A stretch of 64,000 bases of DNA, taken from Eledone cirrhosa (taxonomy: Eukaryota). The DNA lies in contig OZ024746.1 of assembly GCA_964016885.1 (NCBI GenBank), positions 28,768,001-28,832,000 on the forward strand, in the 5' to 3' direction. A program made the translations under genes and the position numbers. Every line of letters starts with the position of its first letter. Position 1 is the stretch's first letter. Under the pieces are notes generated by a model, which saw nothing but the letters and a program-made list of their open reading frames with translations, was not told the DNA's origin and searched no databases. Positions 19,088 through 21,084 of the stretch are shown one piece after another.

Positions 19088-20178
<1,091 letters not shown>

Positions 20179-20203
20179 TTCAAATCAACTGACAGGAAGG
20201 TAC

Positions 20204-20246
20204 ACGGTGCTGATGACAGCTGGTAAGCTAGAAACTAGTTCATCGT
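20204..20246 (+). ncRNA. Minimal type I hammerhead ribozyme
   Basis: acggtg-CTGATGA-cAGCTggtaAGCTa-GAAA-cta-GTT-catcgt; 6-bp stem I; palindromic stem III ACTAGT. Confidence 0.85.
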
Positions 20247-20627
20247 TCCTTCGTCCTTTGTCAGTGTTGAACAAAATGGCAACTATGGCTGCCGAACATT
20301 GTACGGCTAATAATTCGGGCTGTTTGTTTACAAACAAGCCGAGCATTATAATAAATCTTCGGTAAACCCATACGTACATATATATATATGTGTGCATGTA
20401 TGTATGAATATACATACTACTGTACGTCTGTATGCATATATGTATGTACGTATACATACATTTATTTAAGTATCAGCCGTACTAAAATTGAGAAAAGAAA
20501 TTTCAGTTTTTCCATTTATCGTTTTCGGTACGCCCGGCCGACTAACTCACTCGATATGCAAATTAGGCTGCTCAGCCATTAATATGCATAAGGAAAGTAT
20601 ATACTTTCAAACATTCAATCAACTGAC

Positions 20628-20666
20628 GATGCTGATGATAGCTAATAAGCTAGAAACTAGTTCATC
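20628..20666 (+). ncRNA. Minimal type I hammerhead ribozyme
   Basis: gatg-CTGATGA-TAGCTaataAGCTA-GAAA-cta-GTT-catc. Confidence 0.85.
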
Positions 20667-20790
20667 ATTTCTTTGTCAGTGTTGAACAAAATGGCAACGA
20701 TGGTTGCCGAACACTGTACGGCTAATAATTCGTGCTGTTTGTTTACAAACAAACCGAGCATTATAATAAATGTTCGGTAAACCCATACGT

Positions 20791-20863
<73 letters not shown>

Positions 20864-21084
20864 CATGTATGTATGTATATACATACTACTGTACGTCTGT
20901 ATACATATATGTATGTACGTATACATACTTAAATTTAATTATCAGCCGTACTAAGAGTGAGAAATGAAATTTCATTTTTTCCATTTATATATATGGAGAG
21001 AAAAAAGGGAATTGCATTTCTTTGATGAATGTAAGCGATTTCAATTATTCAAATTTACGATTTTATATAAATATTTAGAACGTT

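Follow-up and report, generated by a model that had tools for sequence, protein, structure and literature searches.

Retrozymes are an already described class of hammerhead-bearing repeats (PMC7229834; bioRxiv 10.64898/2026.07.22.740005). Animal non-LTR retrozymes consist of tandem non-coding units of ~150 to 450 bp (350 to 390 bp in mussel) with a GC content below 50% and one type I hammerhead per unit, range from dimers to long arrays, and coexist with Penelope-like elements, which are named only as a strong candidate mobilizer (PMC7229834). Vertebrate retrozymes fall in the same class, occur as short loci and locally amplified arrays, and have had the same partnership with Penelope proposed for them (Li, Clavereau & Pollet 2026, bioRxiv 10.64898/2026.07.22.740005). 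The family from Eledone cirrhosa described here resembles both groups in all of these respects. It also resembles newt satellite 2, a tandem hammerhead repeat cited as having an internal snRNA-type promoter (Coats et al. 1994, as cited in PMC2220036), in that the Eledone unit carries a motif shared with host U6 promoters shortly upstream of its ribozyme.

A second set of likenesses is found in endonuclease-positive Penelope elements of the Neptune and Nematis type, which share with the Eledone family a tail at one end, an inverted and 5′-truncated arm, microsatellite targets, and a hammerhead upstream of two initiation sites (PMC8557442, PMC4209133, PMC11167929). Of these, the tail, the inverted arm, and both initiation sites have been described as traits of Penelope (PMC8557442, PMC11167929), and the frequent presence of the tail at one end only has been stated qualitatively (PMC8557442). 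The Eledone unit differs from these elements in having no ORF and a tail of 56 nt as against the 30 to 40 nt quoted. MRC1 and other non-autonomous Chlamys elements of Penelope type likewise form multicopy head-to-tail insertions, but their 3′ sequence is shared with autonomous families, and canonical hammerheads are reportedly missing from their clade (PMC8557442).

Judged from its sequence, the Eledone family is a non-LTR retrozyme, a known class, and is itself new. All testable features of that class are present in the unit, and the ORF of an autonomous element appears to be absent. The preliminary description of the locus did not recognize the family, and no account of it, nor of the pairing rule reported below as a count, was found in the literature, with Repbase, Dfam, and subscription papers outside the scope of the search.

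Hammerhead repeats next to (TA)n tracts

The window is a 64,000-nt stretch (28768001 to 28832000) of a 3.0-Gb, microsatellite-rich genome. A generic type I descriptor run over it found nine hammerhead matches, compared with a mean of 0.04 and a maximum of 1 in 100 shuffled windows. Seven of the nine belong to one repeat family at four loci, with C3 positions at 20210, 20632, 38772, 45445, and 57714 on the plus strand and at 38334 and 37916 on the minus strand. Predicted cuts are spaced 422 nt apart at 20240/20662 and 418 nt apart at 38304/37886, and each of the four hammerhead-bearing inserts adjoins (TA)n. The preliminary description had reported the seven type I hammerheads, the four loci, the two spacings, and the neighboring (TA)n, and all of these hold. 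Its head-to-tail reading of the flagged insertion also stands as to tandem arrangement, the extent being one whole and two partial units. The features of this locus are as follows.

20178..20988, plus strand: flagged insertion, subfamily B; partial unit, whole 422-nt unit, and partial unit reaching the "long" 3′ end
19092..20177, no strand: (TA)n tract around the flagged insertion, putative target as judged from the sequence
20204..20246, plus strand: hammerhead motif 1; stem I of 6 bp, C·A at 10.1-11.1, palindromic CUAG loop III, U17, predicted cut after 20240
20241..20662, plus strand: whole unit from predicted cut to predicted cut; 422 nt, GC 36%, circular fold z = -5.0
20555..20603, plus strand: TATGCAAAT motif with TATATA 43 nt downstream, candidate internal promoter; the motif precedes host U6 genes too
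20628..20666, plus strand: hammerhead motif 2; stem I of 4 bp, U-A at 10.1-11.1, U17, predicted cut after 20662
20930..20988, plus strand: hairpin-bearing "tail" from the short (unit ~215) to the long (~271) 3′ end

The C·A pair of motif 1 sits at the base of helix II, and in motif 2 a 12-nt deletion precedes stem I. The ccgagcatt/aatgttcgg hairpin noted earlier is perfect in the second copy and carries one mismatch in the first. Four further insertions of the family lie in the window.

37667..39073, no strand: subfamily A insertion with inverted arms; two arms, three hammerheads
45210..45723, no strand: subfamily C insertion; short inverted arm with long end, plus arm with hammerhead (C3 45445) and short end
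57455..57969, no strand: subfamily A insertion; inverted arm with long end, plus arm with hammerhead (C3 57714) and short end
18655..18709, plus strand: fifth family fragment, tail only, without ribozyme; adjoins (TA)n

In the first of these, the minus arm (37667-38400) has the short end and two hammerheads, and the plus arm (38399-39073) has the long end and one. This insert occupies the TA run at the right end of a short MITE-like element (37319-37656), which has terminal inverted repeats CAGTGGAACC...GGTTCCACT and TA dinucleotides on either side. Minisatellites with periods of 30, 48, and 60 nt are also present in the window at 36647-37179, 45859-46635, and 49125-50135.

The two remaining hammerheads, at 62825 and 29554, are unrelated to the retrozyme family. 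The latter (29500-29554, minus strand) has a long helix II and adjoins (TA)n, and it was found again in L048, L061, and L093, so it represents another dispersed family. At least three other hammerhead families, with no sequence relationship to the unit, recur at L040, L041, L045, L049, L050, L052, L055, L058, and L061, and ribozyme-bearing repeats are numerous in this genome.

Rfam hammerhead models, the check proposed in the preliminary description, gave no match on either of two focused stretches, so the descriptor and conservation are the basis of the hammerhead call; for the entire window, the 150 of 373 Rfam matches listed include microsatellite-driven miRNA matches. The motif is complete as a type I hammerhead, as had been claimed. 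It was also called minimal, and this part of the claim fails: in a minimal hammerhead, helix II is long (7 to 8 bp) and helix III is little or absent (PMC4209133), whereas here helix II has 4 bp and helix III has 1 bp with a CUAG loop. By its helices, the motif is of the canonical type with a short helix III found in newts and axolotl. Axolotl Amex1 has the same 1-bp helix III with a palindromic tetraloop and Amex2 the same U·U-closed helix II (PMC7229834), so that the Eledone motif, compared with axolotl, combines both weak features.

In most copies stem I measures 6 to 7 bp, and a long imperfect helix continues it (z -2.7 to -3.0); one of its pairs varies among copies between U·G, G·U, and A-U. 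The 4 bp of helix II are closed in most copies by a non-canonical 10.1-11.1 pair, which is U·U in 78 and C·A in 36 of the 119 dispersed copies, and position 17 has A in 78 of them and U in the other 41. Helix III is a single A-U pair with the palindromic CUAG loop, and since ACUAGU is self-complementary it has what the dimer model requires. The descriptor found an intact core in 107/119 dispersed and 132/155 array copies. The catalytic core is identical in three subfamilies; the chance of an unchanged core is ~0.06 for 11 sites, and core conservation by itself is therefore weak evidence. Variation in the ribozyme body is confined to N7, 10.1, loop II, 11.1, and H17, the helix III palindrome being retained across subfamilies together with the core. 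The hammerhead fold lies 7 to 13 kcal/mol above the predicted minimum, with the worst values in the copies of the flagged locus (predicted misfolding cost 8.8 and 13.4 vs 6.8 kcal/mol). Belonging to subfamily B, with U17 and the largest misfolding cost, that locus is not well suited to an initial assay.

The tandem unit is 418 to 425 nt long with a GC content of 39% and 36%, and its longest Met-initiated frame has 58 aa, so that it is non-coding. Folded as a circular monomer, it has z = -7.6 and -5.0 (40 shuffles) with ~70% of bases paired, to which TA-rich palindromes contribute; such strong self-pairing of the monomer is a feature of non-LTR retrozymes. The three subfamilies are 9.9 to 20% apart, with A and B copies ~2% from their own majority and subfamily C defined from two sequences only. 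A genome-wide search, suggested in the preliminary description, returned 25,525 copies of an exact 31-nt core and none of the reversed control pattern. The unit was present in 5 of 39 arbitrarily placed 10-kb stretches, which corresponds to ~38,000 inserts (95% range, 12,000 to 90,000), and it was present in four sequencing runs of unrecorded kind; a scan of metagenome contigs with the core pattern gave no match. Copies form short inserts and arrays, some of at least 50 kb, with a median arm of 1.1 units and array sizes of ~9, 19, >20, and >118 units. One of the five unit-bearing 10-kb stretches lies inside an array of at least 50 kb and at least 118 units. This array (G000:C28:109990001-110040000; L132, L082, L133-L135) is uninterrupted, has both ends beyond the sequence examined, and contains units ~6% apart with recurring blocks of variants. 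Duplicates (L001, L022, L102), loci superseded by wider ones (L005, L009, L028, L029), edge-cut ends, and one random stretch that proved not to exist were left out of the counts. Unit, arrays, and non-coding content together support the earlier view that this is a tandem repeat with a hammerhead, of non-LTR retrozyme type.

Insertion anatomy and the likely source of the enzyme

With unit positions numbered from the predicted cut, 98 of the 118 mapped 3′ ends fall at two sites 56 nt apart, ~215 (short; 40 ends) and ~271 (long; 58 ends). TA follows directly after 81/98 of these fixed-site ends and after 1/20 other ends. Genome-wide, exact joins of the 3′ end to (TA)n number 4,752 for the long and 3,884 for the short site. 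The 5′ ends are variable and scattered over the unit; in a sample biased towards read-through, 1 of 120 lay close to the cut. Non-LTR retrozymes have long target-site duplications where these are present; here the flanks are (TA)n, in which such a duplication would not stand out. A retained spliceosomal intron, a feature of Penelope pseudo-LTRs, was also considered and was set aside because its donor-like site is not conserved, the GTAAGT donor-like site being present only in subfamily A and replaced by GAAAGT in B and C.

Of the 69 inserts clear of locus edges, 32 are simple inverted pairs whose 3′ ends both face outward. Where both ends lie at fixed sites, one is long and the other short in 20/24 sampled inserts. 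The same pairing is seen in 24/24 outward pairs within 2 kb on C1 (P = 6e-8, among the matches listed, which reach up to 75.4 Mb and comprise 100 long and 94 short ends), and 18 pairs fetched from this list consisted of 16 contiguous inserts and 2 with foreign sequence between the arms. Such near-strict pairing differs from the anole element, for which the start site in vitro is described without a strand difference (PMC11167929). Arm-arm junctions frequently show an overlap of 2 to 6 nt. A different kind of junction was observed in L153, L157, and L159, inverted inserts in which both arms stop at the same unit position with an overlap of 15 to 33 nt; these palindromic junctions suggest a possible fold-back in place of two independent primings. 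At both fixed sites the unit continues with TA-like sequence (TATAT, TAT), which would allow pairing between target and template. This match of 3 to 5 nt with the TA target sets the unit apart from the anole enzyme, whose initiation sites are described as non-homologous to the cut DNA (PMC11167929).

This end anatomy bears on whether the unit is an ordinary satellite or a DNA-level mobile repeat of Helitron- or MITE-like kind, amplified without an RNA step and with an incidental hammerhead. Long arrays have shared-variant and period-2 patterns typical of DNA-level amplification, and the outer ends are indeed inverted repeats; however, the inverted ends are unequal (long plus short), the 5′ junctions are variable, RT-encoding elements of the same genome share the anatomy, and complete hammerheads occur at a mean of only 0.04 in shuffled windows. 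Mostly on the strength of the end anatomy, we regard this reading as largely refuted and extremely improbable.

The RT-encoding elements in question are Penelope-like. The genome holds 10,597 GIY-YIG candidates, of which 150 were scored and 32 loci of about seven families inspected; an ORF with RT and GIY-YIG is present in L043. Four autonomous families have a CxxC linker before the endonuclease, a mark of Neptune and Nematis (PMC8557442), and all four carry a hammerhead with a palindromic tetraloop upstream of two 3′ ends that join (TA)n; the template bases at each of these end sites are TA-like. Their inverted inserts are long plus short in 11/11 loci, as scored by eye. Three of the four have hammerheads of the U3-A8 variant form. 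This core variant, with a CCGG loop, was observed in the Penelope-like families A (L043, L044, L048, L051, L052, L054), D (L039, L041, L049, L055, L061), and E (L031-L034, L036, L042), and family D also has GCAA instead of GAAA. One such element spans the right edge of the window.

62610..64000, minus strand: autonomous-type Penelope-like element, 3′ part; CxxC linker, GIY-YIG, hammerhead 62825-62797, long end into (TA)n

It runs on into L136 (1-4200), which contributes the RT and an inverted arm with a short end (Pfam: RT, GIY-YIG). Taken together, the two stretches form a near-complete element of Neptune type with a 5′ pseudo-LTR. A single frame change and a single in-frame stop interrupt its ORF, and in its hammerhead U·U closes helix II and position 17 is U. 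The element represents a candidate class of enzyme donor and is unrelated in sequence to the unit.

The Penelope "tail" signature is shared between the unit and the four autonomous families, so mobilization by their enzyme is likely, and the putative lender can be narrowed to endonuclease-bearing Penelope-like elements, probably of Neptune type. Re-insertion by a borrowed RT, as first proposed for this locus, thus gains support from 3′ ends in TA, inverted arms, and four Penelope-like families. A parent element was sought by BLAST and local alignment of the unit against the 32 GIY-YIG loci, with matches at chance level only; the best (L036, z 3.9) concerns a T-rich stretch away from the ends of that family. 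A brief likeness between the long end of the unit and the short end of family D was set aside, having no significant score.

The unit might instead be the pseudo-LTR of an unsampled autonomous Penelope-like family, its copies being 5′-truncated insertions of that family. All end features do match Penelope pseudo-LTRs, and the 32 loci inspected stand for 150 scored out of 10,597 candidates. The preliminary description had named this as a refuting condition, and the unit was seen as a pseudo-LTR in no sampled Penelope-like family. In all mapped loci, inserts longer than one unit enter another unit, never an ORF or a longer 3′ UTR, and a non-exhaustive scan of these loci found no ORF inside or joined to the unit. 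An ATG follows within ~30 nt of the long end in three of the four autonomous families, where in the retrozyme the long end leads into the next unit. The best-supported loose ends in run X1 (6 of 179 listed) are subfamily variants. We consider a hidden parent of this kind highly unlikely.

Template RNA and candidate promoter

Our best explanation, in which we place high confidence, is that this non-LTR retrozyme has likely been copied into (TA)n by the RT-endonuclease of Penelope-like elements, probably of Neptune type. The enzyme would nick both strands of a TA tract, and each nick would prime cDNA at one of two RNA sites flanking the tail hairpin, both of which offer a TA-like match of 3 to 5 nt. 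Both cDNAs would extend back through the ribozyme over roughly one unit before being linked head to head, in many cases where a few bases are shared, and some arms may later have been expanded into long arrays by DNA-level duplication. The template would be longer than the cleaved linear monomer.

This last step draws on arms that read back through the cut (91/116, in a sample biased that way), which requires either a circle or an uncleaved multimer as the template. Starts at the cut joined to TA were found in 12 copies, compared with 3 at a control site with less microhomology. The linear cleaved monomer was rejected as the main template because only these 12 copies, set against 25,525 cores, start at the cut after TA; the same is seen in the 1/120 5′ ends near the cut.

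Between a ribozyme-made circle and an uncleaved multimeric transcript, the odds appear about even. The circle route is predicted to need a dimeric helix III for cleavage. Circles are abundant in coral, mussel, and axolotl (PMC7229834), one of nine Xenopus retrozyme dimers cleaved in vitro (bioRxiv 10.64898/2026.07.22.740005), and the anole element inserts in vitro with no need for cleavage (PMC11167929). Markers of subfamily A are discordant in 14% of comparisons within inserts and 45% between inserts; for subfamily B the values are 21 to 23% within inserts vs 24%, and sharing was not seen. The 14% of subfamily A exceeds a background of 3 to 4%. Such discordance would not be predicted for a single monomer circle unless the sites are hypermutable, and it counts against one. 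In L159, L144, and L016, variants private to the insert turned up in both arms and at more than one unit offset, which, together with same-offset arms being no closer than others, fits one homogeneous template. The same-offset comparison, made to look for a single heterogeneous multimer, came out negative. Long arms have period-1 or period-2 variant patterns that differ from the opposite arm; since their shared variants are missing from that arm, they speak for expansion at the DNA level at a later stage and against rolling-circle copying, and long homogeneous arms were discarded as proof of the latter.

The most serious competitor retains the same element and the same borrowed enzyme and contests one step only, holding that the templates are uncleaved read-through multimers transcribed from tandem loci, that no hammerhead circles are made, and that the ribozyme is a weak or protein-gated pseudo-LTR relic. 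Arrays of 9 to >100 units, some of them homogeneous, with units <2% apart, could supply such multimers; U·U or C·A closes helix II in 114/119 dispersed copies, U17 is present in 41/119, residual marker discordance remains within inserts, and the anole element dispenses with cleavage in vitro (PMC11167929). Against this, the core and helix III palindrome are retained across subfamilies, the private variants of L159, L144, and L016 recur at different offsets and in both arms, and same-offset arms are no closer than different-offset arms. In axolotl, a hammerhead whose helix II is likewise closed by U·U does cleave, more so in dimeric form, and circles arise from the repeats that carry it (PMC7229834). 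We rate the multimer account at slightly below an even chance.

As to how a template might be transcribed, the unit contains TATGCAAAT in 60 of 73 copies and a TATA box in 66 of 73, 43 nt downstream and just before the ribozyme. Three host U6 promoters have TATGC(A/T)AAT at -77 to -79 and TATA at ~-30, with a spacing of 47 to 51 nt, so that the spacing in the unit is 4 to 8 nt shorter; the motif pair is expected ~0.002 times per unit by chance. This U6-like motif is a lead to a candidate internal promoter. T-runs are a Pol III termination signal, and a T6 run lies inside the tail, which makes Pol III transcription doubtful. A promoter of U1/U2/U5 type was rejected: with a matrix from ten host promoters (AATTA, TCAGT, and TATA boxes at host spacing), the unit scored 8.3, 1.5, and 11.1 vs 17.6 to 32.6 for the ten host promoters, and box hits of this type are expected 0.05 to 0.74 times per unit by chance. 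In the host U1, U2, and U5 genes themselves, AATTA lies near -90, TCAGT at -55 to -58, and a TATA-like box near -30. The TATA-like box in these Pol II snRNA promoters differs from the vertebrate pattern. Host snRNA promoters were taken as the upstream 100 nt of L161-L163, L173-L178, L187-L189, and L213-L219.

Significance for retrozymes and Penelope-like elements

That retrozymes borrow Penelope enzymes has been assumed, with published support, in the available text of the sources cited above, consisting of co-occurrence and sequence likeness. In Xenopus the evidence is co-occurrence and pseudo-LTR similarity (bioRxiv 10.64898/2026.07.22.740005), whereas here it is insertion anatomy, with no parent pseudo-LTR found among the 32 GIY-YIG loci inspected; the (TA)n targeting, the two fixed 3′ ends, and the inverted arms of this family were not found in the available portion of PMC7229834. 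The family makes up a sizeable share of the repeat load of the genome and carries the mechanical fingerprint of Penelope in thousands of young copies (~2% from the subfamily majority), and the same fingerprint is found in autonomous long-ORF families of the same genome. The near-strict long-plus-short rule constrains Penelope-like insertion, the mechanism of which is only partly reconstituted, and the 420-nt RNA, for which two start sites have been mapped and the TA target is simple, offers a compact substrate for testing it.

A fuller version of the mechanism, which we put forward tentatively and think unlikely to hold in all its parts, is that a ribozyme-made circle of ~420 nt, transcribed from its own snRNA-like promoter, could serve as the template for a dimeric enzyme of Neptune type that primes two cDNAs simultaneously, one on each nicked strand of (TA)n and always one per fixed site through short TA pairing. 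If true, this would be the first direct link of a retrozyme circle to its mobilizing enzyme and would provide a rule that explains both the Penelope tail and the inverted arms.
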